A stretch of DNA of 36,128 nucleotides from a virus (Duplodnaviria; Heunggongvirae; Uroviricota; Caudoviricetes), in IMG/VR virus record IMGVR_UViG_2778261667_000013, positions 1 through 36,128 of that record; one strand, written 5' to 3'. The translations under genes were made by a program, and so were the position numbers. Below, piece after piece: positions 25,934 to 35,849 of this stretch (the first letter of the stretch is position 1; each line of letters opens with the position of its first letter). The notes below the pieces were generated by a model. That model ran no database searches. It was not told the origin of the DNA and worked only from the letters and a program-made list of their open reading frames with translations.

Positions 25934-26221
25934 TTAAAGGGAAGCGAGTTTTAATGGTGGCTTATAACACGCCTGCGCAAGCAGGTTAGCTCTTTCCACG
26001 GCTTTACGCATTTCCCGTTCTGCGTCCAGCATCCTGTTTACGGCTGACAGCACTTCATTATGATTCGTTTCTGACTCCGGGCTTTGGGCCTGTCTCGCCA
26101 GATAACTGGATAAATTACACATCTCAGCATGTCGGCGACGGGCTGCATCCCGGGCCTTGTCTGAAAATGCGGTATATTCACCGAGTGCTGCGTAGTCGAT
26201 ATTGGTGTCAGAACTCATCAT
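25934..26221 (-). CDS. hypothetical protein between activator gene and lysis cassette
   Basis: 95 aa ORF, Arg/Glu-rich, no recognisable motif. Confidence 0.4.
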   Translation of the reverse strand: MMSSDTNIDYAALGEYTAFSDKARDAARRRHAEMCNLSSYLARQAQSPESETNHNEVLSAVNRMLDAEREMRKAVERANLLAQACYKPPLKLASL

Positions 26222-26248
26222 TTCGTGTCTCCTTTTTTCTGAGTCTCA

Positions 26249-26280
26249 TTAATCAAAAAGCCCCACCTGGGTGGGGCTTT
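26249..26280 (-). terminator. rho-independent terminator overlapping the 3' end of the Mor/C gene
   Basis: Minus-strand hairpin GCCCCACC-CA-GGTGGGGC followed by TTTTTGAT and the stop codon; coordinates approximate. Confidence 0.6.
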
Positions 26281-26716
26281 TCAGCGAAGTCTGTTTTTGT
26301 CGTCGGTGTATCAGCTGCCATGCGTACCGGTCTGAAATGCCGTAACGGGGACAGAGCAGTGCCAGCGCCTGCCGGTGTGAGCATCCGTCTTTTACATGCT
26401 GCTGTAAATCAGCCATAAAACGGGTGTTACGCAGGGCACGTAACGCATGATCGCAACGGGGAATGTAAAACGGCGCACCGCCAAGAAAGCGGATCAGTTT
26501 GTTGATTTCGTCTTCGGTCAGCACATCATGTAACAGGGCATGGACACCGCCGGTTCGTTCGGCGTGTGCGCCGGTTTTACCGCTTAACGTCACGCCACCA
26601 AAAGAACGGATTAACCGGGTCAGGGCGGGGAAGCCAATCACGCTAATCAGTTGCTGCACGGAATCAGGCAACAGTGCCTGCGCATCGCGAAGATCTGTTT
26701 CACTGAAGGTCTGCAT
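26249..26716 (-). CDS. Mor/C-family transcriptional activator (middle/late gene activator)
   Basis: 155 aa; C-terminal region ...FLGGAPFYIPRCDHALRALRN...RYGISDRYAWQLIHRR matches the Mor/C signature (GG..YIPR plus C-terminal HTH). Confidence 0.8.
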   Translation of the reverse strand: MQTFSETDLRDAQALLPDSVQQLISVIGFPALTRLIRSFGGVTLSGKTGAHAERTGGVHALLHDVLTEDEINKLIRFLGGAPFYIPRCDHALRALRNTRFMADLQQHVKDGCSHRQALALLCPRYGISDRYAWQLIHRRQKQTSLKSPTQVGLFD

Positions 26717-26778
26717 GATGGCGTCTCCGGTAGTAACTTACTGTTATTATAGCCATACATGATCGCCTGTACAGACCA

Positions 26779-26806
26779 CAAAAAAAGCCCCTGCAAGGCA
26801 GAGGCT
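26779..26806 (-). terminator. rho-independent terminator downstream of GemA-like gene
   Basis: Minus-strand hairpin AGCCTCTGC-CTTG-CAGGGGCT followed by TTTTTTT; 7 nt after the stop at 26813; coordinates approximate. Confidence 0.7.
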
Positions 26807-26812
26807 GATTCT

Positions 26813-27226
26813 TTATTGTTTACGTGCTGCTCTGGCTCGTTTTCTGGCGTCTTTTGTCAGCGCCACCATCACCCCGAACAGTTGATCATCTGTCAGCCAT
26901 TCGATCACATGTTGCTTATACATGTGAGATGCCAGTCCTTCCGCATACGCCCAGGAACGACCGGCATCAGCCAGCAACGCTTCAATTTTGGATAATACTG
27001 ATTTTCTGCTCATTGCAACACGGGGGCGGCGACCTTTACCGGCGGGTGCCTTGCGCGGAAATCCCTGTTCGTGCATGTATTCCCGGATGATGCGCAGTTC
27101 ATCAAGATTGCAACGTGTGGTGCTGGTTTTACCTGTCAGGCGGGCCAGTGTCTGGCGATAAAGGGCATCATCCCACCCCAGATACGCCTGACCGGCTTTA
27201 ATGGCCCCGATCATCTTTTTCAGCAT
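26813..27226 (-). CDS. GemA-like protein (Mu gp16 / DUF1018-like)
   Basis: ORF 26813..27325; start placed at MLKKMIGAIKAGQAYLGWDD... (27226); position immediately before the activator gene as in Mu. Confidence 0.55.
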   Translation of the reverse strand: MLKKMIGAIKAGQAYLGWDDALYRQTLARLTGKTSTTRCNLDELRIIREYMHEQGFPRKAPAGKGRRPRVAMSRKSVLSKIEALLADAGRSWAYAEGLASHMYKQHVIEWLTDDQLFGVMVALTKDARKRARAARKQ

Positions 27227-27476
27227 GTTTGTTATCCTCAAAACGCACGGTAAAACGTGAAACGCCAATTCCTGACAGGAACGTGGCGGCACGATCAAGA
27301 GACAGCCACGTCTTGTAATCGCCACGGCGTTCCTGTAGAAAATAGGACACCCCGGCGCGACGATTCACAGCAAAGAGGTGATACACACCACCGAACCGCT
27401 GCACGACGAACTCATCCACGCCACCGCTTTCAGCCTGCTGCCTGAAGGCAGCTATTCCGATTTGTTCAATCTTCAT
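27198..27476 (-). CDS. hypothetical early protein
   Basis: ORF 27198..27512; ORF-track start ATG lies in the centre of a 26 bp palindrome, so downstream ATG (MKIEQIG..., 27476) is preferred; no clear RBS for either. Confidence 0.35.
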   Translation of the reverse strand: MKIEQIGIAAFRQQAESGGVDEFVVQRFGGVYHLFAVNRRAGVSYFLQERRGDYKTWLSLDRAATFLSGIGVSRFTVRFEDNKHAEKDDRGH

Positions 27477-27499
27477 AATGACCAAAACACTACTTTTGG

Positions 27500-27525
27500 C
27501 AGACCAAAACATATGTTTTGGTCTG
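27500..27525. promoter_or_regulatory. 26 bp perfect palindrome CAGACCAAAACATATGTTTTGGTCTG (operator-like site)
   Basis: Perfect dyad centred on CATATG, preceded by a second CCAAAAC...TTTTGG inverted repeat at ~27482-27499; intergenic between two early ORFs; coordinates approximate. Confidence 0.5.
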
Positions 27526-27556
27526 CGCTTAATTGTTATTTGCTCAATGCGGTGAA

Positions 27557-27808
27557 TTATTTATCACCATCACCGAGCGTCACTTCATGACAGGATGGCG
27601 TGCCATTTTTCCCCGCAGAGCAATAAATAAACTTATCTCCGTCGGTCATGGTGGCACTTCCATCATCACAATGCGTAATGGTTTTGATGAAATTTCTCTT
27701 TACCACGCAATGCCCATTTTTCGCATCATCAGAAGCCTTGTTAGTTGTCACACAAAGCGCAATACCCGTAGCAATCAGAGCGATAATAAAAATGTCAACC
27801 CATCTCAT
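27557..27808 (-). CDS. small Cys-rich protein with N-terminal signal/TM segment
   Basis: ORF 27557..27976 trimmed to MRWVDIFIIALIATGIALCV... (83 aa); hydrophobic N-terminus then soluble part with 4 Cys. Confidence 0.4.
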   Translation of the reverse strand: MRWVDIFIIALIATGIALCVTTNKASDDAKNGHCVVKRNFIKTITHCDDGSATMTDGDKFIYCSAGKNGTPSCHEVTLGDGDK

Positions 27809-27812
27809 CTTT

Positions 27813-28031
27813 TCACCCCGCGTAATCAGGTCCATGTTCCCATCTGGCATCGAGTATTTCCGTTCCCTCCGTCCGGCATGGGTTATCAAGTGCCATTTTT
27901 CCGCACTCCCCATACTCGACATCGACAAAATCAGCAATATCATTGTCCGTTGCGTTATCAGGAACGTCGATTTCAAGCGTTACAGTGATAGTTTTCATCA
28001 GGTTGTTACTCCGAGATTCAGAAAATTTCAT
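27813..28031 (-). CDS. small acidic hypothetical protein
   Basis: 72 aa ORF (possible internal start MKTITV...); Asp/Glu-rich. Confidence 0.35.
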   Translation of the reverse strand: MKFSESRSNNLMKTITVTLEIDVPDNATDNDIADFVDVEYGECGKMALDNPCRTEGTEILDARWEHGPDYAG

Positions 28032-28039
28032 GCCGGGAC

Positions 28040-28450
28040 TCAGTATGTGAAATAGACAGTTGCCACACCGTTATAGTGGTCAAACGACACGGCGTTTACC
28101 TCATAACTGGCCGGGAGCTTCGAGCCAAGAACGTATCCGGGCCACGTTTTCCATGGAATTTCTCTGCTCTCACTATCGCCATATACCGTACATCCCAGTG
28201 AGCCTACAGCTTCATAAGAACGCTTACCGCACGTTATGAACCCCAGATTTTGCTTACTGCCCTTAACAGAAATCGGGAGAGCACTGGCTGATGCGTTAGC
28301 AGCGCCCCGCTCCTGTTGGCTTGCGATATTCGCAGAGTTCGCAGCAGCTACAGCAGCCGTTGTCGCGGCGGTAGATGCCACAATAACTGCTGAAGCCTGT
28401 GCCTGTTGGGTAACGGTCAGCAATGCCGCCACAAAAATCATCTTCTTCAC
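28040..28450 (-). CDS. secreted protein with cleavable signal peptide
   Basis: 136 aa; N-terminus MKKMIFVAALLTVTQQAQA is a classic Sec signal peptide; Ala-rich linker then a domain with two Cys; ~190 bp non-coding region upstream. Confidence 0.55.
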   Translation of the reverse strand: MKKMIFVAALLTVTQQAQASAVIVASTAATTAAVAAANSANIASQQERGAANASASALPISVKGSKQNLGFITCGKRSYEAVGSLGCTVYGDSESREIPWKTWPGYVLGSKLPASYEVNAVSFDHYNGVATVYFTY

Positions 28451-28643
28451 CTGGTATCTCCTTTACATGCTGTGATTTTTCCAGCGGTTTTGCGCCGCAC
28501 TTCTGCTCCGCCAGACACCGTAAAAACGAATAGAGGAGCACCCCCTAAAACCCAGATATCTATAGTAAATAACAAGCCTGTTTGAGATACGGATACGCTG
28601 CCCTGGCTTTGCTATCAGCAGTCTTGCCTTACGGTTTTTCATC

Positions 28644-28835
28644 TCATCCTTCCTCGCTTTTTGCAGTTTCAAACCACGCATCCTGCCCCACAACATCATC
28701 ACCACATGGTGGTTCAGATTCTGAATAGCGACCGGCCCACCAGTATTTACCATTACGATGCTTTGCTGTGCCGCAACGCTGGCATATGAAAATTGACCCA
28801 TCACGCTGATAATGATGGATGTGCTCGTTACTCAT
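28644..28835 (-). CDS. small Cys/His-containing protein (zinc-ribbon-like candidate)
   Basis: 63 aa; HIHHY...ICQRCG...PPCGDD; ATGA overlap with upstream ORF. Confidence 0.4.
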   Translation of the reverse strand: MSNEHIHHYQRDGSIFICQRCGTAKHRNGKYWWAGRYSESEPPCGDDVVGQDAWFETAKSEEG

Positions 28836-29056
28836 TGTGCAGCCTCCTGTTTTGCCACTTTAAACGCCCGTAACATCGGGACCGTTTTACCGGTGATGAC
28901 GGTTCTCATTAAAAGACCGCCACCGCTCTCATGGCGCACTTCAGGAGCAACAAACAGCGCCGCATCCACAACCCGGCAATAGCGACGGAACTCCCAGAAC
29001 CAGCAGGTAACAATGATTTTTGCGGTGACTCCGTAGTCATAAAATTCAATATTCAT
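28832..29056 (-). CDS. hypothetical early protein
   Basis: 74 aa; ATGA overlaps on both sides (translationally coupled cluster). Confidence 0.4.
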   Translation of the reverse strand: MNIEFYDYGVTAKIIVTCWFWEFRRYCRVVDAALFVAPEVRHESGGGLLMRTVITGKTVPMLRAFKVAKQEAAQ

Positions 29057-29280
29057 TTGCAGTTAAACCTTCTTTTGTGACGTTCTACAGCGGCTTTCAT
29101 GGCGTTGTGCACGGTTCTTTTAATAATCCGGCGTCCCGCACTGTCATAGAACCGCCACCGGGAAGCCTCCGGATATTTAGGGAACTCAACCGCCGCGCTG
29201 TCGTCATTCATCCTGTATTCGTGGCGTTCTCCGGGCGGCTGGTATATTGCTTCGGTAACACTGAGAAGTTTAAAAGCCAT
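29053..29280 (-). CDS. hypothetical early protein
   Basis: 75 aa basic protein; start 3 nt after the DUF2786-like gene stop. Confidence 0.4.
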   Translation of the reverse strand: MAFKLLSVTEAIYQPPGERHEYRMNDDSAAVEFPKYPEASRWRFYDSAGRRIIKRTVHNAMKAAVERHKRRFNCK

Positions 29281-29282
29281 CG

Positions 29283-29993
29283 TTATCCCCTCCCCAGTGC
29301 CAGCGGCCTGTTGTTCTGACCATTAACTCCCTGATGCAGTCTGGCGTTTTTCCCGGCGATAAAACCGGCTGTAGCAGCAAACTCTGCACCCCTGCACGCT
29401 TTAGCTGTGCGCATATCCCCGTCGCGCAGCCCTTTAGTGCTGTGCAGGTTCTTTCTGTAAAGCTCAAGGCGGCTTTTTTCTTCCGGGGAGACGTCATACA
29501 CCGCAATGACATCACGGGCACCAAAGACCCAGCCTTCGCAGAACTGGTCGCCACGGGCCACCCGCGTGGACGGACCGCAACGTTTGCAGTGTTTATCCTG
29601 ATATTTCTTGCGCTCTGCCATCATCTGACGGGAAAGCACATCAAACGCGTAGGCCGCAATTTCCGGGCGGCTGTCAGGGCCATAAAAACGAACGTAACGT
29701 TTGAGTGAACCAGAAGCCCGGTACTCACCGGAGATGTAACACTCGACACCGAAGGCTTTACATACCAGGTCACACAGGATGTGCATATAACGCGGCGGCG
29801 TACTGGCATCGCTCGGCGCACCCGCGCTGGCAGCTTCCTGAATGTCGAACAATTCCGCGTCGTTTTCGCTGATACCATGCTGGCGCATATAAGCCTGGGC
29901 TTTTGCAATAGCGTTAGCGGCTTCTTCCGGGCTTGATGTTCCTCTGGCAAGGCGTAACAGTTTTTTGATTTTGGCAATGTATTTATCTTTCAT
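29283..29993 (-). CDS. DUF2786-like protein
   Basis: 236 aa; N-terminus MKDKYIAKIKKLLRLARGTSSPEEAANAIAKAQAYMRQHGI resembles the DUF2786 N-terminal helical domain; C-terminal part has CxxC (HCKRCG) and further Cys. Confidence 0.5.
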   Translation of the reverse strand: MKDKYIAKIKKLLRLARGTSSPEEAANAIAKAQAYMRQHGISENDAELFDIQEAASAGAPSDASTPPRYMHILCDLVCKAFGVECYISGEYRASGSLKRYVRFYGPDSRPEIAAYAFDVLSRQMMAERKKYQDKHCKRCGPSTRVARGDQFCEGWVFGARDVIAVYDVSPEEKSRLELYRKNLHSTKGLRDGDMRTAKACRGAEFAATAGFIAGKNARLHQGVNGQNNRPLALGRG

Positions 29994-30006
29994 GGTCGCC
30001 TGAACC

Positions 30007-30189
30007 TCAGCGCCCTGGATTCTGAATTACGCAACTTCCAGCACGGCCTTCAGGAACGTGGGGAGTTCGTTCTGGCTGCGGCGCTGGATGAACATCTGCT
30101 GTCGATTGAAAACTGGTCGCAAGACGATTAAAACAAACGATTGTCAGATTAATTTCGCGGGCGAATTTTTTTTGCTTGGCGATATTCAT
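30007..30189 (-). CDS. short ORF downstream of repeat copy A (possibly a gene remnant)
   Basis: 60 aa; good RBS (GAGGA) supplied by the repeat, but protein is low-complexity and Pro-rich in its second half. Confidence 0.25.
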   Translation of the reverse strand: MNIAKQKKFAREINLTIVCFNRLATSFQSTADVHPAPQPERTPHVPEGRAGSCVIQNPGR

Positions 30190-30202
30190 AAATAAACTTC
30201 CT

Positions 30203-30273
30203 CAGATTCAGGCGTAAGCCAGCCCTGGCGGGTTTACGCCATATACAAATAAAATTAAAAACAGACTTATTAA
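30203..30273. repeat. intergenic direct repeat copy A (hairpin + RBS cassette)
   Basis: cagattcaggcgtaagccagccctggcgggtttacgcc + AT-rich tail; ~38 bp core identical to copy B except 1 nt; coordinates approximate. Confidence 0.7.
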
Positions 30274-30821
30274 CTACGACGTTCAGCTTTCCGGTAATGA
30301 CGGTCAACAGACTTTACGAACGCCTTCACATCACGGGCAATCGAATCCAGCGGATAATATTCATCCAGCAGTTCCATCCCGCTGAATCGAATCTGAAAAA
30401 AATCAGGCTTATCTTTATATGACTCCATCAGGTCAATAAACCGCAGCTGACGCGGGAGGGATTCCTGCACGCCTGAAATAGTGAGCAAATCATCTTCAAG
30501 GATGTATGCAAGGTCTACCATATCCTTACAGTCAGACATCATGGATATTCTTGTCAGTATGTTCCGTGTGGCGATATACAGCGCGGCTGTGTCATTCGCC
30601 ATCATGGCGAACAAATCCCCCTGAATATAAGCCCCCTTACTGGCCATAGCATTCCCGGCAATCTGCGCATCAAGTACCACATACATAAAATCGCCAGGTG
30701 CACCCAGATGGCCCAGCAATGATGACGCCCATAACGTTACATTGGTTAACTTCCCAGATGAACGGACAGCAAAACCTTCAGGAGTAACAATAAATTCCCA
30801 GACTTTATCTTTCATATACAA
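30270..30821 (-). CDS. hypothetical protein (accessory module gene 2)
   Basis: 183 aa; no recognisable motif; lies between the two repeat copies. Confidence 0.5.
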   Translation of the reverse strand: MYMKDKVWEFIVTPEGFAVRSSGKLTNVTLWASSLLGHLGAPGDFMYVVLDAQIAGNAMASKGAYIQGDLFAMMANDTAALYIATRNILTRISMMSDCKDMVDLAYILEDDLLTISGVQESLPRQLRFIDLMESYKDKPDFFQIRFSGMELLDEYYPLDSIARDVKAFVKSVDRHYRKAERRS

Positions 30822-30879
30822 ATCCCCTTAATTCAGGCGCAGACCTGTTTACCTGCGCCATAAAAAAACGAAGTCAGAG

Positions 30880-31272
30880 TTAAAAATCGAAGACGTCAGT
30901 TAATTCCCGCTTCAGTGAAACGCACTCAGAATAAAAGCCCTCGCTCTCACCGCACCATCTGACGACTACACAGCCTTTTGATGTGCCGAACTTAAAGAAA
31001 CTCCATGTCTGATGACCTTCCCCGACATCACATTCTTCGGTAACCACTTCAGCCTCTGTCAGCGGTTCATCTTTCAGGTCGTCAAGGTCTCCGACGATGT
31101 CCTCAATCCAGACTTTTTCGCAGCCTTCCTGAAAGTGGAAAAATGTAAACACGGTTCCCCATACTCCCCGGGAATAATCACCACGAAAAACAAGTTCATC
31201 GTTTTCATTCTTAACTACTTCTTTAAATGTACGCCCAAGCATTTCATTGATAACGGTAACACTCATTTTCAT
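30880..31272 (-). CDS. hypothetical acidic protein (accessory module gene 1)
   Basis: 130 aa, acidic with 6 Cys; RBS GGAG supplied by repeat copy B. Confidence 0.5.
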   Translation of the reverse strand: MKMSVTVINEMLGRTFKEVVKNENDELVFRGDYSRGVWGTVFTFFHFQEGCEKVWIEDIVGDLDDLKDEPLTEAEVVTEECDVGEGHQTWSFFKFGTSKGCVVVRWCGESEGFYSECVSLKRELTDVFDF

Positions 31273-31277
31273 TTCTC

Positions 31278-31350
31278 CAGATTCAGGCGTAAGCCAGCCC
31301 CGGCGGGTTTACGCCTGTTTTAAATAACAATTAAAAACAAATTAAATTAA
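31278..31350. repeat. intergenic direct repeat copy B (hairpin + RBS cassette)
   Basis: cagattcaggcgtaagccagccccggcgggtttacgcc + AT-rich tail; ends at the stop of the upstream ORF; coordinates approximate. Confidence 0.7.
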
Positions 31351-31538
31351 TGCGGTGCTTTCAGTGTTTCGACTTTTACGAAATAAGGCTCGACATTAAT
31401 TTCAACCACACAACCACATTTAAAATCTCTGACAGGTGAAACGGTTTTCACCACACGACCGCCACGCAACGCCGGATGTGCAGTGTGCATGAAGCGAGTC
31501 CCTACCGGATACTGCTTATTAAAGTTCTTCGCATTCAT
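31347..31538 (-). CDS. hypothetical early protein
   Basis: 63 aa ORF; no motif recognised. Confidence 0.35.
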   Translation of the reverse strand: MNAKNFNKQYPVGTRFMHTAHPALRGGRVVKTVSPVRDFKCGCVVEINVEPYFVKVETLKAPH

Positions 31539-31752
31539 GGCGTGGCCTCCAGCCCTTCAGGTGAGCGTTAGCGCAGAACTCCGCACGATGTTCAGCCCAG
31601 ATGCGGCGCAGGGTGCTACACGGGCTTTGCGCTGCCTTACGCCACAGCTTTTCAGCCTCGGCATAATCGCCGCGTTGTTCTGCTCTGGACGCGCCCAGCG
31701 AATACGCCGCGCAACTATTTCCGGCTCTGTACTCTTTGATATCCTGATGCAT
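31519..31752 (-). CDS. small hypothetical protein (possible small regulator)
   Basis: ORF 31519..31863 trimmed to MHQDIKEY... (31752) so that it abuts the upstream gene stop at 31754; weak resemblance to small helical regulators. Confidence 0.3.
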   Translation of the reverse strand: MHQDIKEYRAGNSCAAYSLGASRAEQRGDYAEAEKLWRKAAQSPCSTLRRIWAEHRAEFCANAHLKGWRPRHECEEL

Positions 31753-31753
31753 G

Positions 31754-32398
31754 TTAAACCCCTGCAATATCAAGCGGGATTGCGCGGTATTCAGCAGAAT
31801 CACCGACGCGCTCATACACGCGGATATAGCTTCTGCTGCCAACCACCTGGACGGCTTCACCAATCAGTTTCATGGCGTTATCCCAGCGTTCCTCCGTAAT
31901 ATCGAGACGACGCAGAGCCAGAACGCGCCCGGTGTTAATGTTGCCTTCCTTGTCCGTGCTGAATGCCTCACTGATGATGGCTTTAATTTCAGGGCGCGCT
32001 CCTTCCGTCCAGTCAGCCAGGCAGTCATCAATCAGTGCCTTCGCGGTCTGAATGCGTTCATCAAGCGCGATACGGTCCTGCATGGCGCGCTGAATCTTGT
32101 AACGCCCGTCAAAGCTGTAAAGCGTGATATTGCCTTTTTTGCCGCCTTTCACAGCGCCGTATTTCTCCGCTGACAGGTCAATAAATGCCTGAATATCACC
32201 AAACGCACGCAGTTTCAGTTCACGCAGTGAGGCGGAGGCAGCAATCACCATCTCCACAAGCTCACCGACCAACTGCTCACGGTCTCGGTCAATATCTTTG
32301 ATAAGACTTTCAGGCGTCATCACACCACGGGCATCAACCCAGTAGCCTTCCTGCACTTTATTTTTTGTATATTGCTTAACTTTATTTTCAGTCGTCAT
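31754..32398 (-). CDS. DUF3164-like phage protein
   Basis: 214 aa; sequence character and position downstream of B match the DUF3164 family common in Mu-like prophages; from recall, not searched. Confidence 0.5.
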   Translation of the reverse strand: MTTENKVKQYTKNKVQEGYWVDARGVMTPESLIKDIDRDREQLVGELVEMVIAASASLRELKLRAFGDIQAFIDLSAEKYGAVKGGKKGNITLYSFDGRYKIQRAMQDRIALDERIQTAKALIDDCLADWTEGARPEIKAIISEAFSTDKEGNINTGRVLALRRLDITEERWDNAMKLIGEAVQVVGSRSYIRVYERVGDSAEYRAIPLDIAGV

Positions 32399-32427
32399 AA
32401 TTAAATTACCTCAGTGATATTTACAGA

Positions 32428-32643
32428 TTAATTTGTGTTATGTGCGCGAGGCGCAACGTTTTCAGAAAAAAGATTCACGCCGTTATAGTCATTTCTGAGC
32501 GTTTCCTTGATAACATCATGTAATCTTGTTGCCACCTGAAACTCCTTTTCGGAAGCTCCGTCCTCCGAATAACTCCCCGTGGTCTGGGTTAAAACACAGC
32601 CTTTTTCATCGGTATAGATAATTACTTCTAACTTAACCGCCAT
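32428..32643 (-). CDS. hypothetical early protein
   Basis: 71 aa ORF. Confidence 0.35.
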   Translation of the reverse strand: MAVKLEVIIYTDEKGCVLTQTTGSYSEDGASEKEFQVATRLHDVIKETLRNDYNGVNLFSENVAPRAHNTN

Positions 32644-32655
32644 TCTGATTTCCTC

Positions 32656-32895
32656 TCATTGCCATACGACGGTGCAGCCGTCGATACAGGACGTTTTCAC
32701 CACGCGGCGCAGGCCGCTGAATGTCTGGATGATTTCCGTTACCGGCCATACAGGACCACCCACGGGCGGGCAGGCATAAACCACAGGTAAACGGTGATGC
32801 TGTCCCGTTACACGACCGCCAGTGGTGTGGATGGCCACACGGGCACGGGAACGGACGGCGTTAATGGTCTGCTTGTCCATCGTCTTGTTCTCCAT
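32656..32895 (-). CDS. hypothetical early protein immediately downstream of B (Mu kil position)
   Basis: 79 aa; stop/start overlap with B; synteny only. Confidence 0.35.
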   Translation of the reverse strand: MENKTMDKQTINAVRSRARVAIHTTGGRVTGQHHRLPVVYACPPVGGPVWPVTEIIQTFSGLRRVVKTSCIDGCTVVWQ

Positions 32896-33788
32896 CAGTG
32901 AATTAACATTTCTGCGAATTTATCAATGGCCTGCACACTGACCGGTGCATCGCTGATATCACAAATCCGGTACACACCGCGCGCCAGTTTGAAGAGGCGG
33001 CGGGCATTACCCAGCGAGCGTGCGTAAAGCGCCTCGCTGATTTCCGGTTCTGCTGCTTCCGGCATCAACCCGGTAGCTATCTGGTTAAAATCTTCCTGCG
33101 ACAACGTATCGCCCAGGTTAAGCGCCAGCGCCACACGGCTGTATAACTGGGCGAACTCACCACGACGCCCCTTAAGGTTAATCAGAAGACGAGGCATACC
33201 CGCCAGGACAACCCCGATACCCGCTTTGTCATGCAGACGACGCAGAACCTCCAGTGCGCGATAGGGGAGCAGTTCAGCCTCGTCCACCATCAGCAGGCGA
33301 CCGGAATCACGCAGTTCGCGCACACAGGCATCTATCAGTTCGTGAATGTTGCCGCGAACCTTTACCCCCAGCTGGCGGCACAACTCCTCAAGCAGTGTTC
33401 TGGCTGTATAGCCCGGGTCAGCCTCAATCAGGACCGCATCCCGGTTTCTGGCGGCGTATTCACGCAGAATCATTGTTTTGCCAAGACCTGCCGCGCCATA
33501 CAGTACGCAGATTTCACATTCCAGGTGAGCATAGGCCAACACCTCCAGTCCTTTGGCAGCCATACCGGTGGCAACAAATTTCGCTTTAATACGGCGGCTG
33601 TTTTCCTTTTCCCGCTCACGGGTCACAAAGGCAGAAATGCGTTCTTCAATATCAGCCATATCGCCCTGATATTTACCCTGTAAATACTGGTTGATAACGG
33701 CGCTGCTACGACCAATAGCACGGGCGACGTGGGTTTGCGTATAGCCGCGACGGGCCATTACGTCATTTAATTGCGTAATTAAACTCAT
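32895..33788 (-). CDS. MuB-like transposition ATPase (AAA+)
   Basis: 297 aa; N-terminal HTH-like segment (YTQTHVARAIGRSSAVINQYLQGK), Walker A GAAGLGKT, Walker B LLMVDEAE; immediately downstream of transposase. Confidence 0.85.
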   Translation of the reverse strand: MSLITQLNDVMARRGYTQTHVARAIGRSSAVINQYLQGKYQGDMADIEERISAFVTREREKENSRRIKAKFVATGMAAKGLEVLAYAHLECEICVLYGAAGLGKTMILREYAARNRDAVLIEADPGYTARTLLEELCRQLGVKVRGNIHELIDACVRELRDSGRLLMVDEAELLPYRALEVLRRLHDKAGIGVVLAGMPRLLINLKGRRGEFAQLYSRVALALNLGDTLSQEDFNQIATGLMPEAAEPEISEALYARSLGNARRLFKLARGVYRICDISDAPVSVQAIDKFAEMLIH

Positions 33789-33806: not shown

Positions 33807-35849
33807 TTAACGGTTGTTTGTGCCGTTTTTCTTTAAATTGCGCTCGCGTTCAGATGCGAATAAATAAAGTTCTTCTTTTTCCTTTTTCTCCTGGCGTTCC
33901 AGTCCATATCCCAGATTAAACTCAGGCTTCTGCGTAATAGCCGGGGTAAGCTCGCGTTTAGCCTCTTCGATTTTCTGCGCGGCCCGTGCAATGCGGCCTC
34001 TGACGCGTTTCTCCAGTTTTTGCTCGATAACTGGTTTAGCGAAGGCATCAACCTTGTTACCGTTCCAGATGGCATCGCAGATATAAGAGCCATCAGCCCG
34101 CCGGACAATGACACTGTTTGCATCATGAATATCGTAACTGACCCTGACTTCATTCCCGTGCTCTGCGGCCAGCTCATACGAGTAATAAATATTGTTGAAT
34201 AACTGAATTTCCCCGCGAAATGTTTTGCGCGTCACTTCCGGTCTGAACATTTCATGCAGTTCTTCCGGCGACAGGAAATCAATTTCAACATTCTGCTCTT
34301 TTATCAGTTTCCGGCGATACGCTGCCGGGCTGTAATATTCGCCATCCTCTTTGCGGGGAAGGCTGCTGTGTGGCCGGTTGTTATAGCGTCTGACCTCCAG
34401 TTCTATGGCTGCCATCAGTTGCTCAAAGGTGGGGATTTCATCCCTCGCCTTAACCTGCCGTTTTGTCAGTTCTTTCCCTTTGTGGGTGGCCTTAATGGCT
34501 GACTGCATAATCCGTTGCTGCATCATTACGGTTTCCTTGTCTGCTCCCTTTGAGCAGTACGTCTGGAAACTCAGGGCCACATCCCGGGGAATTTCCTTGT
34601 TAAGCCTTTCAATCACCCCGCGCCCCTGCGGGTTACCTGGTATCCCCGTGTGATGTTCCACACCCAGCCGGGGGAGAATCCCGGTAATATCGGCATCAAG
34701 AACCCGGTTTTTTTCGCCGCCCCCGTTATCGGAGTAATAAATCAGCGGTATCCCGTGCTGTGCCATGCCGTAACGCAACGCATCAGCAACGGCTATCACG
34801 TTCTCCGACAGGGACAGCGACCAGCCCACAACAAAGCGTTGCCCCGCATCCATAACCAGCGTCACTTCTGGCCGGAAAATATTGCCGGTCAGTGGGTTAA
34901 ACGCGGTCATCTTCATACAGTGACCATCCCCGACCCATACCGCATTAACCGGTAGCGATGTCCAGTCGCGCCGCACAAAGGGATTGAGCGAACGCCAGGC
35001 TGAACCGGTGGAGCGGAAACGCTCCTTAACAATCACCGGGACGTTGCTTAACACCCGTCTTACTGCGTGAACGGAAGGCAGTGCTGCCAGCATTCCCGCA
35101 TCATTCGCGTGTTTTTCATGCCACCAGGCTGAAAACTCGCGATAAGCGTATTCAACGGTCGGGCGCTTCCATGAGCGATAGAACATAAAGAAATCGCTCA
35201 ACCACCAGACCTGCTCCCACGGTGTTCCCTTATGATGACCGGGAGCCAGTAACGCCAGTAACTGATTGGCATCACCGCGCGCCATCAGCCAGGCGGAATA
35301 CCATTCCTGTAAACATCCCCAGCTGACGCCAGTTCGCTTACCCTGTCTGGCGTTGGCAGTACCTGCGGCCTCAATAATGCGGTCAGGCAATGCCCTCTGA
35401 CGAATACCATCAACGATGTGTTTTACTGCTGCCGTCCTGGACATTCCTGCGTATTCACGCAGTTTATGCACTTCGGTAGCCAGCAATATCCGCGCATCAG
35501 CGATGGCCTTTTGCTTGTCGGTCAGTGCCTGGACTTCGCGTAATGCCAGTTCCGGGCATTTGACCATCACTTCCAGTTCATCGCGAACGGTAACGTTTTT
35601 AACTGCCTTCTGCTCAACCACGGCAGGCAGTTGTGCATCTTCCAGAACCTGATGGGTCAGGCGTTTACGTAAAACTTTCTGCGCTTCAGCAGGCAGGCAG
35701 TCGATGTGATACTCGAATGCTTTGGTGCCTTCACGCTTGCGCTTCCATTCCGGGTTATTTTCAGCAAGACGATCCAGACGTGCCCGGATGTTTTTTTCTG
35801 CTGATGGAAAACCGGATAATCCCAGGCAATCCCGCACTACAAACCACAC
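33807..35849 (-). CDS. MuA-like DDE transposase
   Basis: 680 aa; catalytic-core-like motifs WVGDGH and YYSDNGGGE; located between ner-like and B-like genes as in Mu. Confidence 0.9.
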   Translation of the reverse strand: MWFVVRDCLGLSGFPSAEKNIRARLDRLAENNPEWKRKREGTKAFEYHIDCLPAEAQKVLRKRLTHQVLEDAQLPAVVEQKAVKNVTVRDELEVMVKCPELALREVQALTDKQKAIADARILLATEVHKLREYAGMSRTAAVKHIVDGIRQRALPDRIIEAAGTANARQGKRTGVSWGCLQEWYSAWLMARGDANQLLALLAPGHHKGTPWEQVWWLSDFFMFYRSWKRPTVEYAYREFSAWWHEKHANDAGMLAALPSVHAVRRVLSNVPVIVKERFRSTGSAWRSLNPFVRRDWTSLPVNAVWVGDGHCMKMTAFNPLTGNIFRPEVTLVMDAGQRFVVGWSLSLSENVIAVADALRYGMAQHGIPLIYYSDNGGGEKNRVLDADITGILPRLGVEHHTGIPGNPQGRGVIERLNKEIPRDVALSFQTYCSKGADKETVMMQQRIMQSAIKATHKGKELTKRQVKARDEIPTFEQLMAAIELEVRRYNNRPHSSLPRKEDGEYYSPAAYRRKLIKEQNVEIDFLSPEELHEMFRPEVTRKTFRGEIQLFNNIYYSYELAAEHGNEVRVSYDIHDANSVIVRRADGSYICDAIWNGNKVDAFAKPVIEQKLEKRVRGRIARAAQKIEEAKRELTPAITQKPEFNLGYGLERQEKKEKEELYLFASERERNLKKNGTNNR

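Follow-up and report, generated by a model that had tools for sequence, protein, structure and literature searches.

The closest described systems to the locus discussed here are the semi-essential early region of phage Mu (kil, gp6 to gp9, gam, gp11 to gp14 and gemA; AF083977, 4315-8784), the transposable phages BcepMu, phiE255 and B3, the prophage located in eutC of enteropathogenic Escherichia coli (EPEC) E2348/69 and, for a single gene, the ANR family of anti-regulators. The latter family includes Aar of enteroaggregative E. coli and Rnr of Citrobacter rodentium and EPEC, with conserved residues in the order A, E, A, W, A, W and R along the helices (PMC4983702). In a two-hybrid assay, Rnr of EPEC was shown to bind H-NS and Ler; the protein also represses expression of the locus of enterocyte effacement and the type III secretion system and alters the expression of more than 500 genes, and its deletion raises adherence (PMC10148876). 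The DNA analysed here is a viral stretch of 36,128 nucleotides (nt) (Caudoviricetes; IMG/VR record IMGVR_UViG_2778261667_000013), which as a whole is called the window. Between the transposition gene B and the gene for GemA it carries a block of ca. 5.7 kb with small open reading frames (ORFs). We assign this block, with a probability of roughly 80%, to the early operon of a BcepMu/B3-lineage prophage of E. coli and related enterobacteria, as its accessory ('semi-essential') part, with a likely role in host takeover.

The genes of this segment are encoded on the minus strand throughout, starting with Ner, which the end of the window truncates, and continuing with transposase A (33807-35849), B (32895-33788), the small ORFs, GemA (26813-27226) and Mor (26249-26716). 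As the initial annotation had counted, the interval from B to GemA harbors about 17 ORFs in ca. 5.7 kb; all 17 (g1 to g16 and g15b) are on the minus strand, 16 are supported and one (g8) is doubtful, and 90% of the stretch is coding. Coordinates of the ORFs were taken from the NCBI annotation of close relatives where present and otherwise from the boundaries of PHROG matches. Most neighbours are directly adjacent or share a few nucleotides, and spacers of more than 40 nt are limited to five places, all at cassette boundaries. A scan of positions 26000-33000 with Rfam gave no match at the gathering score of any family.

The lineage of the element follows from the DUF3164 protein g3 and from gene order. 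The g3 protein is 64-66% identical to BcepMu gp05 (66%) and phiE255 gp36 and ca. 60% identical to the B3 counterpart, and the order A, B, DUF3164, (DUF2786), GemA and Mor on one strand is found in 29 of the 32 genomes of other species that were retrieved via DUF3164. The identity and the shared gene order argue that the element is, as judged by sequence, a transposable prophage of the BcepMu/B3 lineage and no close relative of Mu itself. Matches to the 5.7-kb block, with 80-99% identity, were obtained in 114 of 5426 complete E. coli genomes, and carriers of the prophage family include EPEC E2348/69. The best coverage of the block by any single one of these genomes is 81%; the region is therefore mosaic. 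It is an ordinary early accessory block of a known prophage module, of which the full gene combination is not found in any complete E. coli genome searched. The chromosomal sites of the prophage copies vary, for example beside yjiL in STEC308 and within eutC in E2348/69 (loci L120 and L123), and 23 of the 144 matching places are plasmid-borne; varied insertion sites and plasmid copies fit integration by transposition.

The initial annotation described the block as almost entirely unassignable, an observation that is largely right and a wording that is overstated. Named families (Kil, DUF3164, ANR, DUF7448 and DUF2786/DUF7168) account for five of the 16 supported ORFs, one of which is 94% identical to Rnr, whereas eleven (g2, g5, g7, g10 to g16 and g15b) stay unplaced, matching only PHROG families of unknown function and nothing above threshold in Pfam, NCBIfam or PADLOC. 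The placements of the DUF3164-, DUF2786- and GemA-like proteins were all borne out by Pfam, with E-values of 9e-79, 5e-13 (together with DUF7168 at 2e-29) and 2e-18, respectively.

The gene directly 3' of B, g1 (32656-32880, minus strand, 74 amino acids), had gone unrecognised as a Kil homologue. It matches the PHROG family phrog_2679 'Kil protein' with an E-value of 6e-35 and phrog_2743 with 5e-3, while Mu Kil matches phrog_2743 (1e-42) and cross-matches phrog_2679 (9e-5). The hhalign alignment of g1 to the Mu Kil profile has a probability of 53.7% (E 1.3e-4) and is collinear over 58 columns (residues 16-74 vs 14-74), and by blastp the C-terminal 25 amino acids are 36% identical. Both proteins count 74 amino acids, with g1 starting 14 nt past the stop codon of B and Mu kil 18 nt past B. 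In a selection test against seven E. coli relatives, g1 has a ratio of nonsynonymous to synonymous polymorphism (pN/pS) of 0.06. Taken together, these comparisons point to g1 as a homologue of Kil, by a link that is distant and weak but consistent. At the other end of the block the GemA homologue (26813-27226, minus strand, 137 amino acids) scores 68 bits against the PF06252 cut-off of 27 (2e-18) and aligns to the Mu GemA profile with a probability of 99.9%.

These two proteins are the only ones with a link to Mu. An all-against-all hhalign comparison, for which alignments of every ORF and every Mu early protein were built from 120-odd loci, gave probabilities of 15% or lower for all pairs other than those of GemA and Kil; for ORFs specific to E. 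coli the alignments comprise just 1-9 sequences, so that the comparison is less sensitive there. Tests by blastp and by shared PHROG families agree with the outcome, and most ORFs of the block thus did not turn out to be known Mu early functions. For Gam (PF07352), no ORF gave a Pfam or PHROG match, the best tblastn hit of Mu Gam in the six-frame translation of the whole window (E 0.02) lies within a structural gene, and hhalign with Gam produced no pair at 5%. By these searches neither the ORFs nor the six-frame translation contain Gam, in agreement with what had been reported before.

An assignment worth following up is that of g4 (31519-31752, minus strand, 77 amino acids), an ANR-family anti-regulator and orthologue of Rnr. 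The NCBIfam ANR model NF033650 scores g4 at 57.3 bits versus a cut-off of 32 (E 1e-15), and 72 of its 77 residues (94%) are identical to E2348C_2635 (Rnr). In EPEC E2348/69 a 77-residue ANR gene is located at NC_011601.1 2721409-2721642 (5588-5821 of locus L123), right after DUF3164, and these coordinates are identical to those of rnr (E2348C_2635) as described by Rodriguez-Valverde et al. (2023, PMC10148876). The g4 protein is smaller than 10 kDa and possesses the seven ANR-conserved residues (A21, E25, A33, W37, A40, W52 and R56), with a spacing that, read by eye against PMC4983702, equals the published one save for a gap before the second tryptophan that is two residues shorter. Its pN/pS is 0.07. 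A single nucleotide lies between the DUF3164 stop codon and the start of g4, a search of the upstream sequence revealed no promoter-like site, and a tblastn search of g4 against sequenced phages gave no match. The rnr gene of EPEC lies within the early operon of a Mu-like prophage. This gene has been investigated for its anti-regulation of virulence in EPEC and C. rodentium; here it is an early gene of a transposable prophage, and it can be tested whether repression or induction of the prophage controls the amount of Rnr and whether Rnr serves the phage in countering silencing by H-NS. H-NS contributes to repression at the early promoter of Mu, and inhibitors of H-NS are encoded by some phages, among them T7. 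One such inhibitor, gp5.5 of T7, is cited in PMC5570504.

In the role proposed here, transcription of the block would proceed on the minus strand, from the side of Ner, A and B in the direction of GemA and Mor, and its genes would be co-expressed with A and B early in lytic growth. Kil (g1) would stop the cells from dividing or change their shape, as its distant homology to Mu Kil suggests. Rnr (g4) would bind H-NS-family and AraC-type regulators and thereby relieve silencing, a use by the phage that we infer, and GemA would by homology modulate host gene expression. The exported g14 and membrane-anchored g15b proteins, both predicted as such, probably act at the envelope, for example in superinfection exclusion. 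Several points weigh against this proposal. The Kil link is weak in sequence (53.7% in hhalign; 34-36% identity over the C-terminal 25-44 residues), and the phenotype of the EPEC rnr deletion under non-inducing culture conditions fits poorly with expression only from a repressed early promoter. The operon structure is deduced from spacing and strand, and host takeover is extrapolated from three genes, with eleven ORFs giving no functional clue. Hydrophobicity is the sole ground for the envelope roles of g14 and g15b.

A comparison of related prophages had been suggested initially as a way to tell conserved early genes from variable cargo, and when run on seven E. coli copies of the prophage it separated a backbone from three cargo slots. 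Kil, g2, DUF3164, Rnr, g5, DUF2786, g11, g16, GemA and Mor are present in all seven copies, as is g10, at about half length in one. The backbone of the block consists of Kil, g2, DUF3164, Rnr, g5, the DUF2786/DUF7168 protein, g10, g11, g16 and GemA. The slots extend from g5 to g9 (slot 1), from g11 to g14 (slot 2) and from g14 to g16 (slot 3). Both g6 and g7 occur in two of the seven copies, g12, full-length g15 and g15b in one each, and g14 in six; g13 occurs in five, the other two relatives carrying versions of ca. 40% identity. In relatives the slots are filled with DUF4752, Ea22-like or XF1762-family genes or with a reverse-strand gene. Across other genera only DUF3164 (35 of 35 loci), GemA (at least 28) and DUF2786 (12) persist. 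The distance from DUF3164 to GemA is ca. 4.5 kb here versus 0.27-3.8 kb in 29 other genomes, which indicates that the accessory block is expanded in this prophage family. The division into backbone and cargo, with the slot boundaries, shows which genes a screen should try first.

The boundaries of slot 1 carry a 64-nt direct repeat with a hairpin, of which copy 1 (31273-31336) and copy 2 (30198-30261) are 83% identical; in relatives copy 2 lies at the place where the terminator of the reverse-strand gene is expected. A divergent third hairpin is found in the gap between g6 and g7 (30822-30879, the copy itself at ca. 30830-30860), consisting of GGCGCAG...CTGCGCC followed by TGAAT, with a predicted RNA folding energy of -18.7 kcal/mol (z -2.8). 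In each copy of the repeat an AT-rich run precedes a GC-rich hairpin and TGAAT, after which the following gene has its Shine-Dalgarno sequence and start codon. Two occurrences of the 30-nt hairpin core are present in the window against none expected, and of the 5426 E. coli genomes 58 contain the element, at a median copy number of two. Since it is confined to these 58 genomes, which carry the prophage family, the element is part of the prophage, as opposed to a repeat of the host; generic repetitive extragenic palindromic elements of E. coli were ruled out on the same ground. We infer that the hairpin repeats may serve as homology patches for cassette exchange.

The end of slot 3 is marked by a palindrome (27479-27526; GCAGACCAAAAC..GTTTTGGTCTGC) with a perfect 12-bp stem at 27499-27526 and a third half-site by the start of g16, for which RNA folding gives a z-score of -5.5. 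It is kept in eight of eight E. coli relatives regardless of the preceding cargo, and its half-site shows no enrichment elsewhere in the window. A promoter-like site (27583-27556) is located just upstream of the palindrome and of the g16-GemA pair. Possible identities of the palindrome are an operator and an RNA element.

The turnover in these slots leads to another explanation, in which the cargo consists mainly of anti-defence or superinfection-exclusion genes that are exchanged in an arms race with host defences and rival phages. It draws on the patchy distribution of g6, g7, g12, g15 and g15b among near-identical backbones, on the different genes that relatives hold in the same slots, and on the predicted export of g14, the predicted membrane anchor of g15b and the orphan status of g7. 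However, no cargo ORF matches a defence-system model or a Pfam anti-restriction family. In the whole block, PADLOC assigned no ORF, giving two weak and short matches only (g10 to E2 and g15b to MTase_I), and no ORF matched the Pfam anti-restriction families. As an account of the slots in general this explanation is possible and rather doubtful.

A further explanation concerns g3 (31754-32398, minus strand, 214 amino acids), the DUF3164 protein, which is a core early protein throughout the lineage. Its match to PF11363 (264 bits) covers profile positions 1-193 of 194, and DUF3164 is seen in 209 phage records. It is kept in 35 of 35 related loci, being the sole accessory protein that is conserved in every locus, and many of its basic residues are invariant, as is a GGKKGN loop. 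The AlphaFold2 model of g3 (predicted local distance difference test score of 80) has no fold match among PDB or viral structures and shows no Ku-like fold, and a literature search for DUF3164 and DUF2786 found no functional study. Gam is present in none of 35 DUF3164 loci and DUF3164 in none of 80 Gam loci from viral contigs, while GemA and DUF2786 are found in both sets. DUF3164 might accordingly be taken as a substitute for Gam in the BcepMu/B3 lineage, with a fold other than that of Ku, that protects linear DNA ends or blocks RecBCD. The mutual exclusion of the two proteins in the sampled loci, the position of DUF3164 in the segment of Gam between B and GemA, its unique conservation and its basic residues and loop would all agree with such a function. 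The exclusivity, however, compares two lineages and may reflect descent only; moreover, DUF3164 and Gam proteins share no homology and the DUF3164 protein is acidic. We consider a Gam substitute unlikely. Likewise unlikely is the broader idea that backbone proteins lacking a recognised fold hide a mechanistically new early function, be it DUF3164 as Gam replacement or, in a looser form, the hairpin slot as a site exchanging new anti-defence or exclusion proteins such as g7. As a lineage-wide protein that is never found with Gam in the sampled loci and has no known fold, DUF3164 is the best single experimental target.

That many of the small ORFs would not be genes, their density being an artefact of mechanical calling, is very improbable: a g8 that lacks a family and lies antisense to a pseudogene remnant, too few differences for a selection test in g2 and g15b, and the omission of g10 by PGAP in most relatives examined stand against PHROG family matches for 16 of the 17 ORFs (E 6e-9 to 4e-119), a pN/pS of 0.04-0.31 for 14 genes including GemA, and starts and stops that abut or overlap with a Shine-Dalgarno sequence at most starts. 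Eleven ORFs (g1, g3, g4, g5, g6, g9, g10, g11, g13, g14 and g16) have values of 0.06-0.27, indicating purifying selection; g15 (0.14) and g7 (0.31) were each judged from one comparison, and g2, g12 and g15b differ too little from their relatives for a judgement. Except for g8, the small ORFs are, by these sequence criteria, genes and not chance ORFs.

The exception, g8 (30007-30189, minus strand), is doubtful as a gene. It has no family match and lies antisense to a 3' remnant on the plus strand (29994-30131) that comprises the last 45 codons of the 72-residue reverse gene WP_000564495.1, with 96% nucleotide identity to locus L002. This reverse gene is intact in L002, L119 and E2348/69, whereas here its start and upstream part are gone via a deletion of ca. 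170 nt. The pN/pS of 0.30 in the g8 frame versus 0.48 in the antisense frame is ambiguous, and among the relatives examined just one has g8 called by PGAP. A different case is g10 (29053-29280, minus strand, 75 amino acids), a basic protein of family phrog_9400 (4e-39) with a pN/pS of 0.23, which is probably a systematically missed small gene. PGAP calls it at full length in L122 only, with a shorter call of 138 nt at the same position in L120; most relatives examined show a g10-sized gap where PGAP annotates nothing. An assignment of g10 as E2-like was rejected, the PADLOC match (E 1e-3 over 35 amino acids) being below cut-off.

Among the other backbone genes, g2 (32428-32643, minus strand) encodes an acidic protein of 71 amino acids that belongs to phrog_7438 (3e-51), a family of unknown function, and has no Pfam or NCBIfam match. 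An equivalence to Mu gp7, which has a similar N-terminus and position, was ruled out as the two do not align. The g5 gene (31347-31538, minus strand, 63 amino acids; phrog_5591, 6e-39) overlaps g4 by 20 nt and is also found in loci of Morganella, Serratia, Erwinia and Pantoea. In g9 (29283-29993, minus strand, 236 amino acids) residues 4-43 match PF10979 (DUF2786) and residues 60-187 match PF23771 (DUF7168), both above cut-offs; nearly all of the 120 homologues listed share this architecture, and a confident model of g9 has no match among solved folds. Sequence and profile searches of the PDB with g3, g9, g6, g7 and g16 gave nothing below an E-value of 0.2. The g11 protein (28832-29056, minus strand, 74 amino acids; phrog_1001, 2e-35) is 74-98% identical in the seven relatives. 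Finally, g16 (27198-27476, minus strand, 92 amino acids; phrog_7844, 7e-62; pN/pS 0.10) overlaps the GemA start by 29 nt; a ParC-like identity was discarded at 16 bits versus a cut-off of 95.

The cargo of slot 1 comprises g6 (30880-31272, minus strand, 130 amino acids), a DUF7448 protein (PF24240, 2e-15; phrog_2650), and the orphan g7 (30270-30815, minus strand, 181 amino acids; phrog_7741, 4e-119), which falls in a single cluster, its own, among 1.84 billion representative proteins. A match of g7 to a mucus-binding repeat protein (E 4e-5) is spurious, with 21% identity and a score inflated by five repeats. In slot 2, g12 (28644-28835, minus strand, 63 amino acids; phrog_7369, 1e-42) contains a CxxC motif; Pfam matches to RING or zinc finger families were below cut-offs and such an identity was rejected. 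The adjacent g13 (28463-28642, minus strand, 59 amino acids; phrog_1380, 6e-9) has an isoelectric point of 11.9 and a pN/pS of 0.21. The g14 protein (28040-28450, minus strand, 136 amino acids; phrog_8805) is predicted to be exported, with a signal-like N-terminus that by eye ends in AQA|S. It is represented by 56 clusters, from Enterobacteriaceae only and lacking a Pfam domain, and is called 'Prophage exported protein' in one source. Slot 3 holds the acidic g15 (27813-27998, minus strand, 61 amino acids), matching phrog_8773 (1e-45) from residue 12 of a longer ORF, and g15b (27557-27808, minus strand, 83 amino acids; phrog_8391, 1e-43), which has five cysteines and a predicted N-terminal transmembrane anchor (Kyte-Doolittle 19-residue maximum of 2.27 at residues 4-22). 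The PADLOC MTase_I match of g15b has an E-value of 0.05 over a short stretch.

Downstream of the block, Mor follows GemA at a distance of 96 nt. A terminator-like hairpin with a run of seven T residues (26786-26806, minus strand) lies directly after the GemA stop codon. Ahead of Mor a promoter-like site is present (TGTACA, a 16-nt spacer and TATAAT), which together with the terminator spans 26746-26806 on the minus strand; the two features suggest a boundary of transcription units between the early genes and Mor. The GemA-Mor gap is a fourth variable position: in some relatives the GemA-type gene ('gp16 family protein') is separated from Mor by a further gene (L003, 7909-8385; L121, 8671-9009; L123, 9866-10342) which is missing in the window. 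Just 3' of Mor, a 95-residue ORF (25937-26221, minus strand) belongs to phrog_7152 (9e-52), a family of unknown function.

In comparison to the Mu semi-essential early region, the block described here has the same position between B and gemA/mor, the same strand, a similar size and packing, a Kil homologue as first and a GemA homologue as last gene, and a promoter-like site before the g16-GemA pair that resembles the Mu semi-early promoter before gemA. In contrast, Mu gp6 to gp14 and Gam are without counterpart here by blastp, shared PHROG families and profile-profile comparison, and Mu lacks DUF3164, ANR, DUF2786 and DUF7448. Similar to Aar and Rnr, g4 passes the NCBIfam ANR model, is smaller than 10 kDa and has the seven conserved residues. 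Unlike those proteins as they are described, it sits in a prophage early operon: the word 'phage' occurs zero times in PMC10148876, and the other ANR literature examined likewise gives no prophage context for rnr. With BcepMu, phiE255 and B3 the element shares the order of DUF3164, GemA and Mor 3' of the transposition genes and the absence of Gam. The BcepMu region is compact, however, with five genes from B to GemA that include those for an HU-like protein and a pyrophosphatase, whereas the block in the window adds to the lineage an enterobacterial Kil, an ANR protein and g14 to g16. The prophage in eutC of E2348/69 (NC_011601.1, ca. 2716000-2728000) differs in having an intact reverse-strand gene of 72 amino acids, DUF4752 and an Ea22-like protein, and in having nothing annotated at the positions of g6, g7, g14 and g15b, whereas it displays the same order of B, Kil, DUF3164, rnr, g5, DUF2786, g16, a GemA-type gene and Mor, together with the same hairpin element and palindrome.

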